From Escherichia phage vB_EcoM_G2494, in the sequence record MK327935.1: a stretch of 64,000 nucleotides of DNA; one strand, written 5' to 3'. Position numbers and translations under genes: made by a program. The notes below the pieces were generated by a model, which ran no database searches, was not told the DNA's origin, and worked only from the letters and a program-made list of their open reading frames with translations. Below, piece by piece: positions 5,062 to 29,573 of this stretch; the stretch's first letter is position 1, and each line of letters opens with the position of its first letter.

Positions 5062-5499
5062 TTATTTGTTGATAACGATCTGATTTCGGCGAATGGTAAC
5101 ATTACTCTTAGAGATGATCAGATCATCCGGCACTACGTTAGTTTTGTATGGTTGGAAGCGAACAAGCATCTGATTGCGTTTAGACCCTTCCTTAATCTTG
5201 ATTTCCATCTGGATATTGTTGCCTACGTGAGCAACCGCAATTTCACCTTTATTCTCATAGACCCACTTGCTGGTAACGTCTCCAGCAAAAGCCTTAATAA
5301 CTTGCAATGCTTCGTCGTATGCGGTAGAGCTGTGAACTTTCAGAAGGCCAGCCGTAGCAAGACGGGAGCAGGTGATCGCCGGAGATTGCCAAACATCAAC
5401 ATTAATTTGCTCAATCAGAGTAACACCGCCCTGATCAACTGCTTTGAATGCTTCGAACATTGCCTTTTTCATTGCTACGTGGGTTTTACGGAATTTCAT
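5062..5499 (-). CDS. hypothetical protein (145 aa)
   Basis: ATG with AGAGGTG SD; no recognisable motif. Confidence 0.6.
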   Translation of the reverse strand: MKFRKTHVAMKKAMFEAFKAVDQGGVTLIEQINVDVWQSPAITCSRLATAGLLKVHSSTAYDEALQVIKAFAGDVTSKWVYENKGEIAVAHVGNNIQMEIKIKEGSKRNQMLVRFQPYKTNVVPDDLIISKSNVTIRRNQIVINK

Positions 5500-5545
5500 A
5501 ATTAGTCACCTCTATTGATTAGTTATTCAGAATATTAATTACAAA

Positions 5546-5821
5546 TCAGGACATTGCCCGTTTGAATGCGTCCATTATAACAGTGTTATTTGGCTTGTCA
5601 ACACGTTTTTGAACTTTATTTTTAAATTTTTTGTTGATGTGGTGTTTACGATAAACAACCTTTTCACGGTTGGCGTAAGCCTCGCGTGCATCTTTTACCA
5701 TCAACCATGCCTTAGCCGCATCTTGTCCGCTGATCCCGCCAATCTTTTTAGCAATATCAACAAAATTAAGACCGTGGTCTTCTCGTAGCATGTAAACCAT
5801 TAACGCTGTTTTCTTGTCCAT
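5546..5821 (-). CDS. hypothetical protein, possible helix-turn-helix (91 aa from internal ATG)
   Basis: ATG at 5821 overlaps the TGA of upstream ORF (ATGA-type coupling); ORF-track start at 5929 lacks an SD; start uncertain. Confidence 0.4.
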   Translation of the reverse strand: MDKKTALMVYMLREDHGLNFVDIAKKIGGISGQDAAKAWLMVKDAREAYANREKVVYRKHHINKKFKNKVQKRVDKPNNTVIMDAFKRAMS

Positions 5822-6018
5822 CACTTCGCCCCATTGACGATTAACAGGATAGTGATCAGCACCGGAAACTGGATCATGATAGTGCCAATAAACCGGATAA
5901 ACGCATTTTCTGACTTCCACACATGACATGCGACTAGCTGATATACCATTGTTGCCACCAAAGCCAGAAAATACATCTCGATTGGTGTTTCTTTGATCAA
6001 TCGTACAATCTCATTCAT
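5821..6018 (-). CDS. small membrane protein (65 aa)
   Basis: GAGGTG SD 4 nt upstream of ATG; two hydrophobic segments. Confidence 0.45.
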   Translation of the reverse strand: MNEIVRLIKETPIEMYFLALVATMVYQLVACHVWKSENAFIRFIGTIMIQFPVLITILLIVNGAK

Positions 6019-22006: not shown

Positions 22007-22186
22007 TTAGAACATTTTTGAAATTAATTCTGCTTTGATTTCGCAGAGAACATCTAAAGATTTCTCGTCACCCGCTTTTGCTGCTTCTGCTTGCATTTTT
22101 GAAATGGCTTCAATCTCAGTGCAATTATAAGCCGCTTGAACTTTAGCGATTGCGAGGATTGCCGATTCGATGGTTAAGTGTTTTAT
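22007..22186 (-). CDS. hypothetical protein, ATA at expected start position (possible pseudogene or non-canonical start)
   Basis: 59-codon open frame placed exactly like neighbouring genes behind AGGAGAATCAAAC, but start codon is ATA. Confidence 0.3.
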   Translation of the reverse strand: MKHLTIESAILAIAKVQAAYNCTEIEAISKMQAEAAKAGDEKSLDVLCEIKAELISKMF

Positions 22187-22218
22187 GTTTGATTCTCCTT
22201 TCGTTTCGGTATGTGTGT

Positions 22219-22247
22219 ATTATAGGGGATCGATGATCCCCTGTCAA
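22219..22247 (-). promoter_or_regulatory. early promoter, consensus TTGACA-17-TATAAT with perfect palindromic spacer GGGGATCATCGATCCCC
   Basis: Read on minus strand; A-tract UP element upstream. Confidence 0.7.
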
Positions 22248-24311: not shown

Positions 24312-24351
24312 TGTTTGATTCTCCTAAGTGGTATCTCGTCTTGATGGTTGT

Positions 24352-24380
24352 ATTGTAGGGGAGTTATCCTCCCCTGTCAA
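24352..24380 (-). promoter_or_regulatory. early promoter TTGACA-17-TACAAT with palindromic spacer GGGGAGTTATCCTCCCC
   Basis: Read on minus strand. Confidence 0.6.
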
Positions 24381-24394
24381 CACTTTTTATAAAA

Positions 24395-24562
24395 TTATTT
24401 GTTAATTTCCGGTGCGTTGCTTGGATAGTAACCTTCTTTAACACCCAGGTATTTCGCAACCATCCCTACAATCTTCTGTGCTACTACAATGTCAAATTTC
24501 AGATAATCTTCGCCGTGGGTTTCAATGATATATGCTTCACATGCTGCTTTAGTCTCGAACAT
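24395..24562 (-). CDS. small protein (55 aa), duplicate copy A
   Basis: MFETKAACEAY ...; about 89 percent identical to product of 28188-28355. Confidence 0.55.
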   Translation of the reverse strand: MFETKAACEAYIIETHGEDYLKFDIVVAQKIVGMVAKYLGVKEGYYPSNAPEINK

Positions 24563-24595
24563 TTTGATTCTCCTATTTCGTTTCGTTATGTGTGT

Positions 24596-24625
24596 ATTAT
24601 AGGGGATCTCCCGATCCCCGTCAAC
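24596..24625 (-). promoter_or_regulatory. early promoter (TTGACG-18-TATAAT) with palindromic spacer GGGGATCGGGAGATCCCC
   Basis: Read on minus strand. Confidence 0.55.
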
Positions 24626-24637
24626 AACTTTTTAAAA

Positions 24638-25111
24638 TTATTTGCACCAAATTCGAATGATTTCGTCTCGTTCAAATTTTTGCCAGATTACTCGGTCGCC
24701 CGCTGCCATAATCCTGACAAATCCAGTTATATTTCCGGTGTACTTGCTTTTAGTTTCTGCATCATATTCAAAGAATGGAGCTTTAAGATCGCTAAACTCA
24801 TCTTTTCCCACAAACTTCATAACATGACGGTGTGCGTAATATTCGCTTCTTAGTGTTGTTGTGATAGTTCCGTCATCATTTGATTTCAGATGCAATTCGG
24901 CATCTTCATAAAGACTTGCATCTCGTTGTTTACTTTCGATACCATCATTATATGTTGATTTGGTTGCACTCCAACATTGATATGTCTTATCTACATTTTC
25001 GATCTTTTCCTGTGTCATGTCAAAAAGCGGCGCAACCTTTTTCTTAGCCGCGTGCGCAACGTTGGTCATAGACAGTGCCGCAACAACCGCAATAGCAATA
25101 ATTTTCTTCAT
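24638..25111 (-). CDS. secreted/periplasmic protein with signal peptide (157 aa)
   Basis: MKKIIAIAVVAALSMTNVAHA signal peptide; AAAGGAG SD. Confidence 0.6.
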   Translation of the reverse strand: MKKIIAIAVVAALSMTNVAHAAKKKVAPLFDMTQEKIENVDKTYQCWSATKSTYNDGIESKQRDASLYEDAELHLKSNDDGTITTTLRSEYYAHRHVMKFVGKDEFSDLKAPFFEYDAETKSKYTGNITGFVRIMAAGDRVIWQKFERDEIIRIWCK

Positions 25112-25172
25112 AATATCATCTCCTTTGGTTTATATGGCGGGAGTATCTTAGCAATACTCCCTTAATACTATA

Positions 25173-25454
25173 TTATTCGTGATTAGTTTCGATGTTGTGC
25201 ATTTTGCACCAGTTCAGCCAATCGCCCAGATCTTGATAGTTGATGCTTTTATCTGCTGCCATCGTTTTTGTCTTGATACCCATATGTGCGTTATGAGTAA
25301 GCATTTTTACAGTGAACTCAATTTTATCACCTTTAGCTTTAACATCAACCAGTTTGGTCCACTGGCTACCAGCGCCGCGAATGTTCATACCAACGATGTT
25401 TCCGATGTATGCTTCTTTGTTTTTCAGGATTTCGGTTGCTTTGATGAATTTCAT
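25173..25454 (-). CDS. hypothetical protein (93 aa)
   Basis: ATG with GGAGAATCAAAA spacing typical of this region. Confidence 0.55.
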   Translation of the reverse strand: MKFIKATEILKNKEAYIGNIVGMNIRGAGSQWTKLVDVKAKGDKIEFTVKMLTHNAHMGIKTKTMAADKSINYQDLGDWLNWCKMHNIETNHE

Positions 25455-25487
25455 TTTTGATTCTCCAGTTCGTTTCGGTATGGGTGT

Positions 25488-25516
25488 ATTATGCTATGTT
25501 CTTACTTTGGTGTCAA
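25488..25516 (-). promoter_or_regulatory. early promoter TTGACA-17-CATAAT
   Basis: Read on minus strand. Confidence 0.55.
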
Positions 25517-25524
25517 CAACTTTT

Positions 25525-25794
25525 TTAGATATTTTCAGAAATAAATTTTAAAACTTGACGTAAATGTTTCTCGTCTTTGATAGTCGCCGGAAGTTCTTCT
25601 TTTACTTCCTGTGCAAGATAGATATTTCCGTTCCAAGTGAAAGATCCGTCTTCGTTTACGCGATAGCTGAACATCCACTCGCAATCATTTTCGATTTCAT
25701 ATACACACAGAAGGGTGTAATCTTCAAAGCTATTGATTTCAAGGTCGAAGCCGTGACGTTTTGCAAAGTTGGTAGTGGTTTTAGTCAGTGCCAT
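25525..25794 (-). CDS. hypothetical protein (89 aa)
   Basis: ATG start behind promoter 25835-25863. Confidence 0.55.
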   Translation of the reverse strand: MALTKTTTNFAKRHGFDLEINSFEDYTLLCVYEIENDCEWMFSYRVNEDGSFTWNGNIYLAQEVKEELPATIKDEKHLRQVLKFISENI

Positions 25795-25834
25795 TGTTTG
25801 ATTCTCCTAAGTGGTATCTCGTTTCGATGTGTGT

Positions 25835-25863
25835 ATTATGCTATAGGCGTGATCTGGTGTCAA
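25835..25863 (-). promoter_or_regulatory. early promoter TTGACA-17-CATAAT
   Basis: Read on minus strand. Confidence 0.55.
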
Positions 25864-25920
25864 TGCCTTTTTTAAAATTTTATGCAATAAAAAAGCCGAC
25901 ACTAAGGTCGGCTAATAAAA

Positions 25921-26229
25921 TCATTTAGACAAATAATCATTCTGTGCAATCCGGTCGGCGTATGCTGGTGTTATGTCAATCGCCAGCACTTTAACGCGTG
26001 CTTTCTTGCGACCTGGGTTTTCTCGTAACCAGTGCTCATGACCGTGAACATTTTTATACTGCGATGCTTCTTCGAAGGTACGGATCGGACCTGGGTAATC
26101 AGCGTAAAGGATCTCTAGATCTTCGGTGATGTAAAAATATACATCGTAATTGCTGTTCTCTAGCTTAAGCAGAGACTTTCGGAACATTGGGAGATTTTCG
26201 CGGGTAAATTCAAAGATATTATCTTTCAT
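25921..26229 (-). CDS. HxHxW-motif paralog family member A (102 aa)
   Basis: YFYITEDLEILY ... HGHEHW ... VLAIDI shared with six neighbours. Confidence 0.55.
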   Translation of the reverse strand: MKDNIFEFTRENLPMFRKSLLKLENSNYDVYFYITEDLEILYADYPGPIRTFEEASQYKNVHGHEHWLRENPGRKKARVKVLAIDITPAYADRIAQNDYLSK

Positions 26230-26279
26230 AGTATTATCCTCAATAGTTGGATGAAAAGGGGGGCTTAACGCCCCGTATA

Positions 26280-26567
26280 TTAAAACAGTCCTTCCTGTAC
26301 ACCGTAGTAGAGTTCATCGCTGATAATTTCATTAATGCGACGGTGTGCATATTCCTGATTTGCGAAGTTGTCAGCAAGTTCTACTTTAGTTTCGCCGTCA
26401 TGAGTCCATTTAGTGATAACTTTACCATCTGCAAATTTGAAGTTGAACTCTTTAGCTACCGCATCGCGTACCAGACGTGCAAACTTATTGTTGCGGATTG
26501 CATTGTCGGTTTCGTGTTCAGCGTGAGCGAATTTGTTAACTTTCAGAGTGATAGTAATGTATGCCAT
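26280..26567 (-). CDS. hypothetical protein, KEFN-motif paralog 1 (95 aa)
   Basis: RLVRDAVAKEFNFK; paralog of 29845-30156. Confidence 0.5.
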   Translation of the reverse strand: MAYITITLKVNKFAHAEHETDNAIRNNKFARLVRDAVAKEFNFKFADGKVITKWTHDGETKVELADNFANQEYAHRRINEIISDELYYGVQEGLF

Positions 26568-26613
26568 AATTTGATTCTCCTAGTTAGAAAGTGTATCTCG
26601 TTTCGATGGGTGT

Positions 26614-26642
26614 ATTATGCTATACACCCGATCTTATGTCAA
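26614..26642 (-). promoter_or_regulatory. early promoter TTGACA-17-CATAAT
   Basis: Read on minus strand. Confidence 0.55.
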
Positions 26643-26648
26643 CACTTT

Positions 26649-26927
26649 TTATAAAATAATTTTTTGATATTTTTCTATGATGTTTGTGTAGGTCACATCA
26701 ACCGCGAGCACCGTTGCTTCGAATCCACCGTTTAGCCAATGGCTATGATCGTGATCGTTAAAGAAACCGAGGCCAGTGCGAAGACCTTCTTTATATTCGG
26801 CGCGTACATTCAGTTTGTCGTCGATAAACAGATAAAACCATGAATTTTTACTAGGATTGATGATACAACCTTTCAGATTAGGGAGAATATCACGACTAAG
26901 AATAAACTTATCACCTACTTTGAACAT
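26649..26927 (-). CDS. HxHxW-motif paralog family member B
   Basis: HDHSHW ... VLAVDV; ATG at 26927 with GAGGA SD (ORF-track start 26942 is GTG). Confidence 0.5.
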   Translation of the reverse strand: MFKVGDKFILSRDILPNLKGCIINPSKNSWFYLFIDDKLNVRAEYKEGLRTGLGFFNDHDHSHWLNGGFEATVLAVDVTYTNIIEKYQKIIL

Positions 26928-26931
26928 AATA

Positions 26932-27252
26932 TTAGTCCTCACTTATAAGGTCAAACCAATTGTTTTTCGCATAATGCTTAATGCGTGCTTGATCTGCTTC
27001 CGCTGGTGATAGATTCCATGCGATCACTACAACTTCTGACGCATCGTCATCCGTTTCTGATATCCAATGATTGTGATTCATACAGTTATTTGCTATCGCG
27101 TGAGCAAATGATCTCATTACTGGAGACGTATAATCATAGTAACGGATTTTCAGATTTTCATCAACGTACAAATAGATCGTATAAGGTTTATATTCAGTAA
27201 CCAGTAACAGACAGTTACGCAATTCTGGGAAAATCTTTTTAGTTAATTTCAT
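26932..27252 (-). CDS. HxHxW-motif paralog family member C (106 aa)
   Basis: YLYVDENLKIRY ... NHNHW ... VVVIAW. Confidence 0.5.
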   Translation of the reverse strand: MKLTKKIFPELRNCLLLVTEYKPYTIYLYVDENLKIRYYDYTSPVMRSFAHAIANNCMNHNHWISETDDDASEVVVIAWNLSPAEADQARIKHYAKNNWFDLISED

Positions 27253-27454
27253 AGTCTATTTCTCCGTAATACACGGTAATCCATTTTTCTTCATACTTTG
27301 TATCTTTCCAACACACAATCCCGTTTACTGTGCAATCTTTGGAATTGACGAATGATTCATATTGTTCTGCGTCTTCCATCATTGCATGAGCGGTCTTTTC
27401 ATCGAATATATCGCAGATCGCTTTATATGCTCAATAATCTTTAAATTTGCTCAT
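27239..27454 (-). pseudogene. paralog of 27457-27666 with in-frame TGA at codon 8 (27431-27433)
   Basis: Identical first 7 codons (MSKFKDY), then TGA, then 63 further open codons; no alternative start with SD. Confidence 0.45.
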
Positions 27455-27456
27455 AA

Positions 27457-27666
27457 TTAAGACCACTCAAGAGTTTTTGAAAACACATCTATCCATTGTT
27501 GAGTATATGCGGTTTCTTTCCATGATACAATACCAGTAGAATAATGGTTTTTGTTTCCAGAAAAGGACGGGCATTTTGATGCGTCTTCCATCATCTTTTC
27601 GGCGAACTCTGGTTCGTATACTCGCAAGATCTGTTGATATGCTTTGTAGTCTTTAAATTTGCTCAT
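27457..27666 (-). CDS. hypothetical protein (69 aa)
   Basis: ATG start; intact paralog of 27239-27454. Confidence 0.5.
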   Translation of the reverse strand: MSKFKDYKAYQQILRVYEPEFAEKMMEDASKCPSFSGNKNHYSTGIVSWKETAYTQQWIDVFSKTLEWS

Positions 27667-27931
27667 AATCGTTAACTACCTTATCAGCTTCTTTTATTGT
27701 TTTTACATCAACTGCGATAACCCGTAAAGGTTCGTCATGGTTCCACCAATGATCGTGAATATCGGCTTGTGATTTATCACCAAAGGAATCACGAATATCA
27801 TTTTTACATTTATAGCTAATGTGACCTTCATAGTCAACATAAAGGTAATTATCGAAAATCGGCGTTTTTAAGATCATACCGAAAAATCTTTCTTTGTGTG
27901 TCTTATCCAGTGTTGCAGTAATTCGCATCAT
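27653..27931 (-). CDS. HxHxW-motif paralog family member D (92 aa)
   Basis: YLYVDYEGHISY ... HDHWW ... VIAVDV; AAGAGGAA SD. Confidence 0.5.
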   Translation of the reverse strand: MMRITATLDKTHKERFFGMILKTPIFDNYLYVDYEGHISYKCKNDIRDSFGDKSQADIHDHWWNHDEPLRVIAVDVKTIKEADKVVNDYEQI

Positions 27932-27943
27932 AATATATTCCTC

Positions 27944-28123
27944 TTAGAAAGGGATGGTCATTTCTTGAGCTTGTACATTCTCGTTAGGATTAAACTTCAT
28001 CCAACCGATATTGTCTACCAGCATATGCACATTTTTATCATATCCTACGTGAGTAGTCAACACTAAATGTGATTTACCTTCAACGATGATTTCCATGTAC
28101 TTCTGAACTTCGATAGCTTTCAT
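27944..28123 (-). CDS. small hypothetical protein (59 aa)
   Basis: Hand-translated; ATG behind GGAGAATCAAA; below ORF-track size cutoff. Confidence 0.4.
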   Translation of the reverse strand: MKAIEVQKYMEIIVEGKSHLVLTTHVGYDKNVHMLVDNIGWMKFNPNENVQAQEMTIPF

Positions 28124-28155
28124 TTTGATTCTCCGTTTGTTGTCTTGATGGGAGT

Positions 28156-28184
28156 ATCTTACTACTCCCTTTAATCATTGTCAA
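28156..28184 (-). promoter_or_regulatory. putative early promoter (TTGACA-17-TAAGAT) with stem-loop
   Basis: GGGAGTAGTAAGATACTCCC hairpin overlaps the -10. Confidence 0.4.
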
Positions 28185-28187
28185 CGA

Positions 28188-28355
28188 TTATTTGTTAATT
28201 TCCGGTGCGTTGCTTGGATAGTAGCCTTCTTTAACACCCAGATATTTTGCAACCATTCCGGTGATCTTCTGTGCTACTACGATATCGAATTTCAGGTAGT
28301 CTTCACCGTGGTTTGCTACAATGTATGCTTCGCATTCTGCTTTAGTCTGGAACAT
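28188..28355 (-). CDS. small protein (55 aa), duplicate copy B
   Basis: MFQTKAECEAY ...; ATG behind AGGAGAATCAAAA; ORF-track N-terminal extension is the promoter region. Confidence 0.55.
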   Translation of the reverse strand: MFQTKAECEAYIVANHGEDYLKFDIVVAQKITGMVAKYLGVKEGYYPSNAPEINK

Positions 28356-28389
28356 TTTTGATTCTCCTATATCTCGTTGGTATGTGTGT

Positions 28390-28418
28390 AGTATAGGGGA
28401 TCGGTGATCCCCTGTCAA
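28390..28418 (-). promoter_or_regulatory. early promoter TTGACA-17-TATACT with palindromic spacer GGGGATCACCGATCCCC
   Basis: Read on minus strand. Confidence 0.6.
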
Positions 28419-28428
28419 CAACTTTTTT

Positions 28429-28737
28429 TTATTCTTCATCTTCATCATTATCTTTATATGCGTACTTCATAAATTTGTCTGCTACTTCGTCCGCGTTTTC
28501 AGGTTCTACGTCTGACGCTAGGACAACAGCTAGTTCGGTTTTGTCGTTTCCATCATACCAATGATTATGAGTGTCGTTTTCTTCGATATAAAACGAATCA
28601 GTTGGAGTTGTGCGACAATATACGTCTAAATTCCCATCGATATAAAAGATCCAATCCGAATACAAAATGATTGTTTTAGCAAGATTTTTATTGTCTCTCA
28701 CAAAAGGTTCTGAGACAAATAGCTTAGTTTGTTCCAT
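28429..28737 (-). CDS. HxHxW-motif paralog family member E (acidic C-terminus)
   Basis: DWIFYIDGNLDVY ... THNHW ... LAVVLA; ATG at 28737 with GAGGA SD (ORF-track start is GTG). Confidence 0.5.
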   Translation of the reverse strand: MEQTKLFVSEPFVRDNKNLAKTIILYSDWIFYIDGNLDVYCRTTPTDSFYIEENDTHNHWYDGNDKTELAVVLASDVEPENADEVADKFMKYAYKDNDEDEE

Positions 28738-28993: not shown

Positions 28994-29022
28994 ATACTAC
29001 ATTACGCAAAATGGCGTGTCAA
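28994..29022 (-). promoter_or_regulatory. early promoter TTGACA-17-TAGTAT embedded in 3' end of upstream gene
   Basis: Read on minus strand; followed by GGGAG ... CTCCC hairpin. Confidence 0.45.
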
Positions 29023-29305
29023 TACTTCTTTTTGCTGTTCCGCTAAGATTCTCGATCTCTCCTGGCATAACATCAACCGCCAGAACTTCTACAACATCCT
29101 CTGATCCTAACCAGTGAGTATGACCTTTGTAGAACTTGATATCCCATTTATCGCTATCGCTAGCCCACCACACATCACCGTCTATAAAGTTGATGTAAAG
29201 CACACTACGACACATTGAATTAGTTACTTTCAATACTGCGCCTTTCATCTCTTCCACGGTATGGTCTTCCATTTTGAAGACCTCGCCTACCTTAACTTTT
29301 GCCAT
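28997..29305 (-). CDS. HxHxW-motif paralog family member F
   Basis: VLYINFIDGDVWW ... GHTHW ... VLAVDV; ATG at 29305 chosen by alignment with paralogs, weak SD. Confidence 0.45.
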   Translation of the reverse strand: MAKVKVGEVFKMEDHTVEEMKGAVLKVTNSMCRSVLYINFIDGDVWWASDSDKWDIKFYKGHTHWLGSEDVVEVLAVDVMPGEIENLSGTAKRSIDTPFCVM

Positions 29306-29306
29306 G

Positions 29307-29573
29307 TTACATGTTCCGAATATGTTTAGATGCATCTTCCAGTTCGTCGATAGTGACACTGTGAGCCAGTAAGTGTACTGGTTGTGGTTCTTCACCTTCC
29401 ATAGTATTGATCAGATGACCGTTTCCTGGGTGGAATGTATCGTTGCCGTTCCAAATAGCATACACATCATCTTCTGTTACGTAGATAATAAGTCCAATCG
29501 GTGATTCTGGTAATTGAAAAATTTTACCCACTGCATCTTTGCGATTGTCTACGATATCTTTGACTGTCTTCAT
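29307..29573 (-). CDS. divergent member G of HxHxW paralog family (88 aa)
   Basis: LIIYVTEDDVYAIW ... HPGNGH ... VHLLAHSV; AGAGAGG SD. Confidence 0.45.
   Translation of the reverse strand: MKTVKDIVDNRKDAVGKIFQLPESPIGLIIYVTEDDVYAIWNGNDTFHPGNGHLINTMEGEEPQPVHLLAHSVTIDELEDASKHIRNM

Follow-up and report, generated by a model that had tools for sequence, protein, structure and literature searches.

Gene shuffling by promoter-early stem-loops (PeSLs) has been described in the phages RB49 and phi1, where the published work covers insertions, deletions and replacements (Arbiol 2010, PMC2839356; Comeau 2014, PMC4122927). A PeSL is an intergenic element with four parts: before the -35 box an AT-rich tract, in which the stop codon of the previous gene lies; a consensus sigma-70 promoter; a stem-loop of the form Gn-loop-Cn; and, at the 3' end, the Shine-Dalgarno sequence and ATG of an ORFan (PMC2839356). 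In the same study the RB49 element PeSL206/205 proved to be a strong promoter, yielding approximately 13,000 Miller units in a lacZ fusion, and the stem-loop of PeSL211/210 was found to be a terminator in vivo (PMC2839356). Additionally, a mini-circle with ORFs 191-194 was sequenced from RB49-infected cells and virions, its crossover lying between PeSL190/191 and PeSL194/195; the circle reported is that of ORF191-194 only, with no single-gene mini-circle of either ORF191 or ORF205 (PMC2839356). Duplication, paralogy and gene conversion are mentioned in neither of the PeSL papers (PMC2839356, PMC4122927), and our literature search on RB49 paralogues found nothing relevant.

Here we describe a pair of 55-amino-acid genes within a stretch of 64,000 nucleotides from Escherichia phage vB_EcoM_G2494 (MK327935.1), which we refer to as the window. 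Across the 5.2 kb around the gene pair the window matches 58 phage records at 92-96% identity, all of them RB49-like Krischvirus, and by these matches it is itself a Krischvirus, an RB49-like T4-type coliphage. Copy A (24395..24562, minus strand), an early ORFan whose product begins MFETKAACEAY, is the orthologue of RB49 ORF191 (RB49p191) and is included in the published mini-circle. Copy B (28188..28355, minus strand), the paralogue that begins MFQTKAECEAY, is the orthologue of RB49 ORF205 (RB49p205), the gene downstream of the assayed PeSL206/205. In RB49 the alt genes on one side and DNA ligase on the other enclose a block of small hypothetical genes to which these two ORFs belong, and to judge by this position the pair sits in hyperplastic region 3 (HPR3). 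The "promoter cassettes" that the first-pass annotation placed around both copies are the PeSLs of Arbiol 2010 (PMC2839356); that annotation had recognised neither that the elements were published nor that the locus is one studied experimentally in RB49. The gene pair is an ordinary case of the already published PeSL gene-shuffling system, at its type locus. New here are the recognition that ORF191 and ORF205 are paralogues and how old the pair is, together with the mosaics left by conversion and the deletions, of a single cassette or of a whole interval, found in newer genomes.

The two proteins, previously described as about 89 percent identical, share 49 of 55 residues (89.1%), and their genes share 145 of 168 nucleotides (86.3%). 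The last 36 nt had been reported as identical, and indeed the final difference falls at nt 132, so that nt 133-168 match; the copies also match for 1 nt past the stop codon, making the longest exact match 37 nt. The copies are in direct orientation with a spacing of 3793 nt, in agreement with the distance of about 3.8 kb given earlier. In an all-against-all comparison of the region's 28 ORFs they were the sole high-identity pair (BLASTP E = 7e-36). The earlier label "near-identical" fits the pair only in a loose sense: synonymous sites are near saturation in the 5' two-thirds of the genes. For copy B we rejected an 86-aa ORF (28188-28448) as an artefact that reads through the PeSL; the shorter 55-aa gene was preferred because a GGAG Shine-Dalgarno sequence stands 7-8 nt before its ATG and because the upstream part of the longer ORF is not conserved in relatives.

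As the first-pass annotation had also proposed, each copy lies alone between two promoter cassettes, with no other ORF between them; each cassette is made of a sigma-70 promoter and a G-rich stem-loop. The four cassettes, all on the minus strand, are positional orthologues of RB49 PeSL192/191, 191/190, 206/205 and 205/204 (PMC2839356), whose names we adopt. Upstream of copy A, PeSL192/191 (24563..24637) has an AT-rich tract, a -35 box TTGACG (24624-24619), a -10 box TATAAT (24601-24596), the stem-loop GGGGATC-GGGA-GATCCCC (24619-24602; dG -14.9 in a 57-nt fold) and the Shine-Dalgarno sequence TAGGAGAA. Downstream of copy A, PeSL191/190 (24312..24394) has a -35 box TTGACA (24380-24375), a -10 box TACAAT (24357-24352) and the stem-loop GGGGAG-GATAA-CTCCCC (dG -19.4). 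PeSL206/205, upstream of copy B (28356..28428), carries a -35 box TTGACA (28418-28413), a -10 box TATACT (28395-28390), the stem-loop GGGGATC-ACC-GATCCCC (dG -13.8) and again the Shine-Dalgarno sequence TAGGAGAA. PeSL205/204, downstream of copy B (28124..28187), carries a -35 box TTGACA (28184-28179), a -10 box TAAGAT (28161-28156) and the stem-loop GGGAGTA-GTAAGA-TACTCCC (dG -15.7), which overlaps the -10 box. The -35 box of this last cassette starts 3 nt after the copy B stop codon (TAATCGTTGACA), without the AT-rich tract that is seen before the -35 box in PeSL192/191, PeSL191/190 and PeSL206/205 (TAATTTTAAAAAG..., TAAAAAAAAG...).

All four flanking promoters have a 17-nt spacer and match the sigma-70 consensus (TTGACA, N17, TATAAT) at 10-11 of 12 positions, the stem-loops range in dG from -13.8 to -19.4 kcal/mol (57-nt folds), and (T)AGGAGAATCAAA(A)ATG is found at the 3' end of every one of the cassettes. 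The stem lies between the -35 box and the -10 box in three of the four and overlaps the -10 box in PeSL205/204; both positions are classes described by Arbiol 2010 (PMC2839356). We regard the promoter and terminator activities of the PeSLs in the window as putative, by orthology or family kinship with the RB49 elements. A 31-nt leader, ACGAGATACCACTTAGGAGAATCAAACAATG, is identical in PeSL191/190 and in PeSL195/194 (25795..25920, minus strand, with a -35 box starting at 25863). These two are the same pair whose crossover gave the RB49 ORF191-194 mini-circle (PMC2839356).

In a gapped alignment the similarity between A and B begins at AAAAAGTTGTTGAC, in the AT-rich/-35 part of the upstream PeSL, extends over promoter and leader, then over the Shine-Dalgarno sequence and the gene itself, and ends in TAAT, 1 nt past the stop codon. 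The downstream PeSLs of the two copies differ, and the similarity stops exactly where the downstream cassette starts. Limits of similarity lying off the cassettes had been named as the observation that would count against a cassette-based origin; the limits coincide with the cassettes, and that reading survives. The 5' similarity is not peculiar to this pair. The upstream PeSLs of A and B are 85% alike, and each of them is closer to a third PeSL at 22247 (87% and 90%). We therefore rejected the upstream similarity as a duplication boundary, and consider the 5' boundary to be a family resemblance and no duplication scar. The breakpoints of the first event could also have been erased by PeSL exchanges that came afterwards.

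The synonymous divergence between A and B is high (dS 0.75 for the whole gene, with 1.28 in codons 1-35 against 0.29 in codons 36-55), and on this basis a recent segmental duplication was rejected. The dN/dS ratio is 0.07, with 16 synonymous vs 7 non-synonymous changes, a pattern that places both copies under purifying selection. In a set of 13 A and 15 B copies, taken from the window and 16 relatives, the distance is approximately 2% within each type and 14% between the types, and nine differences are fixed between the two sets. Because dS is high, because the types are 14% and not 2% apart, and because nine differences are fixed, the copy event must predate the radiation of the genus.

Several alleles are mosaics of the two types. 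In the B copies of Brandy and PTE-Eco09 six diagnostic sites in a row (nt 51-75) are A-type, the PTE-Eco09 copy A has B-type sites at nt 7-24, and several A copies have contiguous B-type tracts within nt 108-153, including that of the window, which carries B-type alleles at nt 117, 120, 141 and 153. These mosaic alleles show ectopic gene conversion between A and B, and a B-to-A conversion tract would account for the identical 3' end of the window pair. Taken alone, the identical 3' run of the window pair is not significant (permutation P = 0.07-0.09), and the 3' likeness of paralogues is no higher within the same genome than between different genomes (4.9 vs 4.8 differences). For these two reasons we consider conversion to be occasional, and not a continuous homogenisation.

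Both copies are present in 51 of the 58 Krischvirus records and one copy is present in the other seven, such that none of the 58 is without the gene. Brandy and JK32 have lost copy A alone: ORF193 runs straight into ORF190, and the 193/190 junction is a chimeric PeSL, in which the promoter and stem-loop of the A-upstream PeSL are joined to the leader of PeSL191/190. This deletion is a precise excision of a single-gene cassette, and its chimeric junction provides independent support for cassette-level mobility. In Cognac and FL04 the whole 3.8-kb interval is gone, and a single A-type gene is kept behind the neighbours of B. In Cognac the crossover falls after the Shine-Dalgarno sequence and before nt 7 of the gene, and in FL04 it is at the -35/stem; judged by these junctions, the deletions are two independent events, both within the upstream PeSLs. 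The interval between the copies in the window (24563..28187, minus strand) holds 11 small ORFs, the equivalents of RB49 ORF192-204; it is absent as a block in Cognac and FL04, and is dispensable. MIZ4 has lost ORF192 through ORF186, PeSL-to-PeSL, and phiS and PTE-Eco09 have lost genes upstream of B, whose upstream neighbour varies. Chimeric PeSLs are found at the junctions in Brandy/JK32, Cognac, FL04 and MIZ4.

The region contains other small genes with histories of their own. Seven diverged paralogues of approximately 90-105 aa are encoded on the minus strand (25921-26229, 26649-26927, 26932-27252, 27653-27931, 28429-28737, 28997-29305 and 29307-29573); they are 20-34% identical, share HxHW and V[LI]A[VI]D[VI] motifs, and had no Pfam family that we could find. 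Because this HxHW family makes up most of the interval between the copies, the region must have a long duplication history. A second small paralogous pair lies inside the interval (27239-27382 and 27457-27666, minus strand; 47 and 69 aa), with 41% identity over 44 aa (E = 3e-10). RB49, Cognac, FL04, MIZ4 and Brandy lack the segment 29309-29571, which holds the 88-aa HxHW ORF at 29307-29573, and we read it as another cassette-level indel. JSE and G37-3 have an annotated 267-nt gene at the position that matches 29307-29573, a likeness of length and position only.

Two further ORFs of the window differ from their RB49 counterparts. The N-terminus of the ORF192 homologue (24638-25111, minus strand) resembles a signal peptide; over 46 aa from its start the protein is identical to RB49 ORF192, and the remainder is diverged (58% overall). 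At >99% identity the allele in the window occurs in MIZ2, MIZ3, MIZ6 and FL38 alone, and the gene is absent from most Krischvirus genomes. From its sequence it looks like a mosaic or an allelic replacement inside a PeSL cassette. The ORF186 homologue (22008-22187, minus strand) has ATA in place of the ATG start of RB49 and Phi1; its remaining ORF and its PeSL (-35 starting at 22247) are intact, and it may be a silenced or weakly translated cassette.

We compared the 55-aa protein with multiple sources. Both copies match PHROG 8009 end to end, over residues 1-55 of the 55-position profile (E = 6.8e-38 for A and 1.2e-38 for B); the family is one without functional annotation, and membership in it therefore explains nothing about mechanism. 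There was a weak match to PHROG 485 (E = 0.01), an uninformative family, and searches of Pfam, NCBIfam and PADLOC gave no match even at E <= 10. The search for the protein in other phages, which had been suggested as a check, returned homologues in 45-kb siphoviruses (swi2, SeSz-2 and D10) and in Aeromonas phage Avpd1. An exhaustive HMM search of 1.84 billion representatives yielded four real relatives, along with noise matches in long proteins, and a pattern-based scan of one genome per species in 185,579 bacterial and archaeal species gave no match. Across the family 17 residues are invariant, including C8 and G44-Y45..S48-N49. In an AlphaFold2 model built from a shallow 5-sequence alignment (mean pLDDT 67), residues 5-16 and 18-39 are helical and the tail is disordered, and a Foldseek comparison of this model with the PDB returned no match at E < 5. 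The protein is predicted to be a two-helix hairpin with a conserved GYYPSNAPEI tail.

A more distant relative bears on which of the two loci is the older. Contig L028, from a Logan metagenome assembly (SRR5584643), contains at 5484-5926 an A-like gene, with 83% amino acid identity, that overlaps the stop codon of an ORF194 homologue (ATGA overlap), with no PeSL between them. By this overlap the A-like gene would be translationally coupled to the ORF194 homologue, and the arrangement suggests that the PeSLs and ORF192/193 were inserted between A and ORF194 later, in Krischvirus. When polarised with outgroups, Q3, A14 and N15 are derived in copy B, and A7 is derived in copy A. Given the L028 arrangement and the outgroup-derived residues of B, locus A is probably ancestral and B the inserted copy.

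We think it probable that an old duplication of a PeSL module, PeSL recombination, purifying selection and occasional conversion together explain the pair. This account builds on the architecture, boundaries, age, selection, conversion mosaics and deletion junctions that we observed. Each copy forms a self-contained PeSL module, composed of an early promoter, an embedded stem-loop, a Shine-Dalgarno sequence, one ORF and the next PeSL. Because of this modular structure, host RNA polymerase would be expected to give strong transcription of each copy, independent of the other, immediately upon infection, and the embedded G/C stem-loop would attenuate read-through from upstream. The pair would have arisen long ago, when one PeSL-bounded gene was copied or re-inserted, most likely by PeSL-PeSL recombination in which it was cut out as a mini-circle and then integrated at another PeSL, at a distance of 3.8 kb; for the original copy event, we infer this mini-circle route. 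Short ectopic conversion tracts would still pass between A and B, with both copies kept by purifying selection, and the surrounding PeSLs would, in some relatives, mediate the deletion of just copy A or of the entire interval. The cassette-mediated duplication put forward by the first-pass annotation is, therefore, upheld in part: the boundaries and the cassette excision in Brandy/JK32 speak for it, but the pair is old, the 5' boundary is non-diagnostic, and a duplication is not separable from an import.

Such an import would make A and B xenologues: the gene would first have diverged in a related phage, and one copy would then have arrived from there as a PeSL cassette, for instance within an encapsidated mini-circle or through recombination in a co-infected cell. 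Transfer of this kind was proposed in the PeSL papers (PMC2839356, PMC4122927), and members of the family pass from one phage to another that is unrelated (Swiduovirus swi2, the Salmonella phages SeSz-2 and D10, and Aeromonas phage Avpd1). An import would also fit the near-saturated dS in the 5' two-thirds of the gene, compared with a difference of only 2-5% in the genus's orthologous flanks. However, A and B are mutually the closest known relatives, with 49/55 identities vs at most 45/54 to any other homologue, which favours duplication within the lineage, although import from a close relative is still compatible with these values. Furthermore, no B-type donor lineage is known, either among the four real hits of the HMM search or in bacterial genomes. 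We consider the import to be a credible but unlikely origin.

We give still less credence to unequal crossing-over at misaligned PeSLs in two copies of the genome, by which a multi-gene block would have been duplicated in tandem and all but the 55-aa gene then deleted. T4-type replication is recombination-dependent, kilobase exchanges between PeSLs are known (the Cognac, FL04 and MIZ4 deletions), and the region has the other, older paralogue families described above (the 7-member HxHW family and the second small pair), all of which would be in keeping with such an event. Nevertheless, several additional deletion steps would be required, and because the neighbours of A and B (ORF190 vs ORF204, and ORF192/193 vs ORF206) have no pairwise similarity, there is no trace of a larger duplicated block; this route is very improbable. 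That the repeat is non-coding or regulatory, or a chance likeness of spurious small ORFs, has next to no probability: the shortness of the ORFs (55 aa) and the lack of a Pfam family speak for it, but the reading is refuted by the substitution pattern given above, and each copy has a strong Shine-Dalgarno sequence and belongs to a PHROG 8009 family whose members in unrelated siphoviruses are 45-72% identical and share the invariant residues.

With respect to function, our guess, made with low confidence, is that the 55-aa protein has an accessory early role, in which it binds a target in the host; it is prompted by the early PeSL promoter, the small size, the universal retention in the genus and the strong constraint. 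We also entertained the idea that A and B differ in specificity, as two diverged forms of one small early host-binding protein, and that the A/B repeat with its PeSLs is a built-in recombination switch, which we regard as improbable. If they were specificity variants, for example inhibitors of a polymorphic host factor or defence protein, then selection would explain the presence of at least one copy in every Krischvirus. If the recombination switch were true, then deletion and mini-circle re-insertion would switch the accessory block of 11 ORFs on and off among the phages of a population. Retention in all 58 Krischvirus genomes makes the 55-aa early protein a reasonable target for knock-out or for an interaction screen.

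Returning to a duplicated PeSL module as the preferred reading, the pair is a clean natural example of PeSL-mediated modular shuffling at single-gene resolution. It brings little that is new and opens no new kind of system; its contribution is to carry the published PeSL model beyond insertion, deletion and replacement, so that it takes in duplication and concerted evolution as well. The closest comparison is with the PeSLs of RB49 and phi1 themselves: genus, hyperplastic region and elements are the same, and the indel junctions of the relatives fall inside PeSLs. A more distant parallel is provided by integron gene cassettes, which are likewise single, mostly promoter-proximal ORFs bounded by conserved, recombination-prone repeats; by analogy, PeSL cassettes would leave as circles and re-insert at another repeat, giving rise to duplications and deletions. 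The likeness is one of analogy only, as PeSL cassettes have no integrase and no attC/attI and use instead the general homologous/microhomology recombination of the phage, and each of them brings its own promoter, whereas integron cassettes depend on the common Pc.
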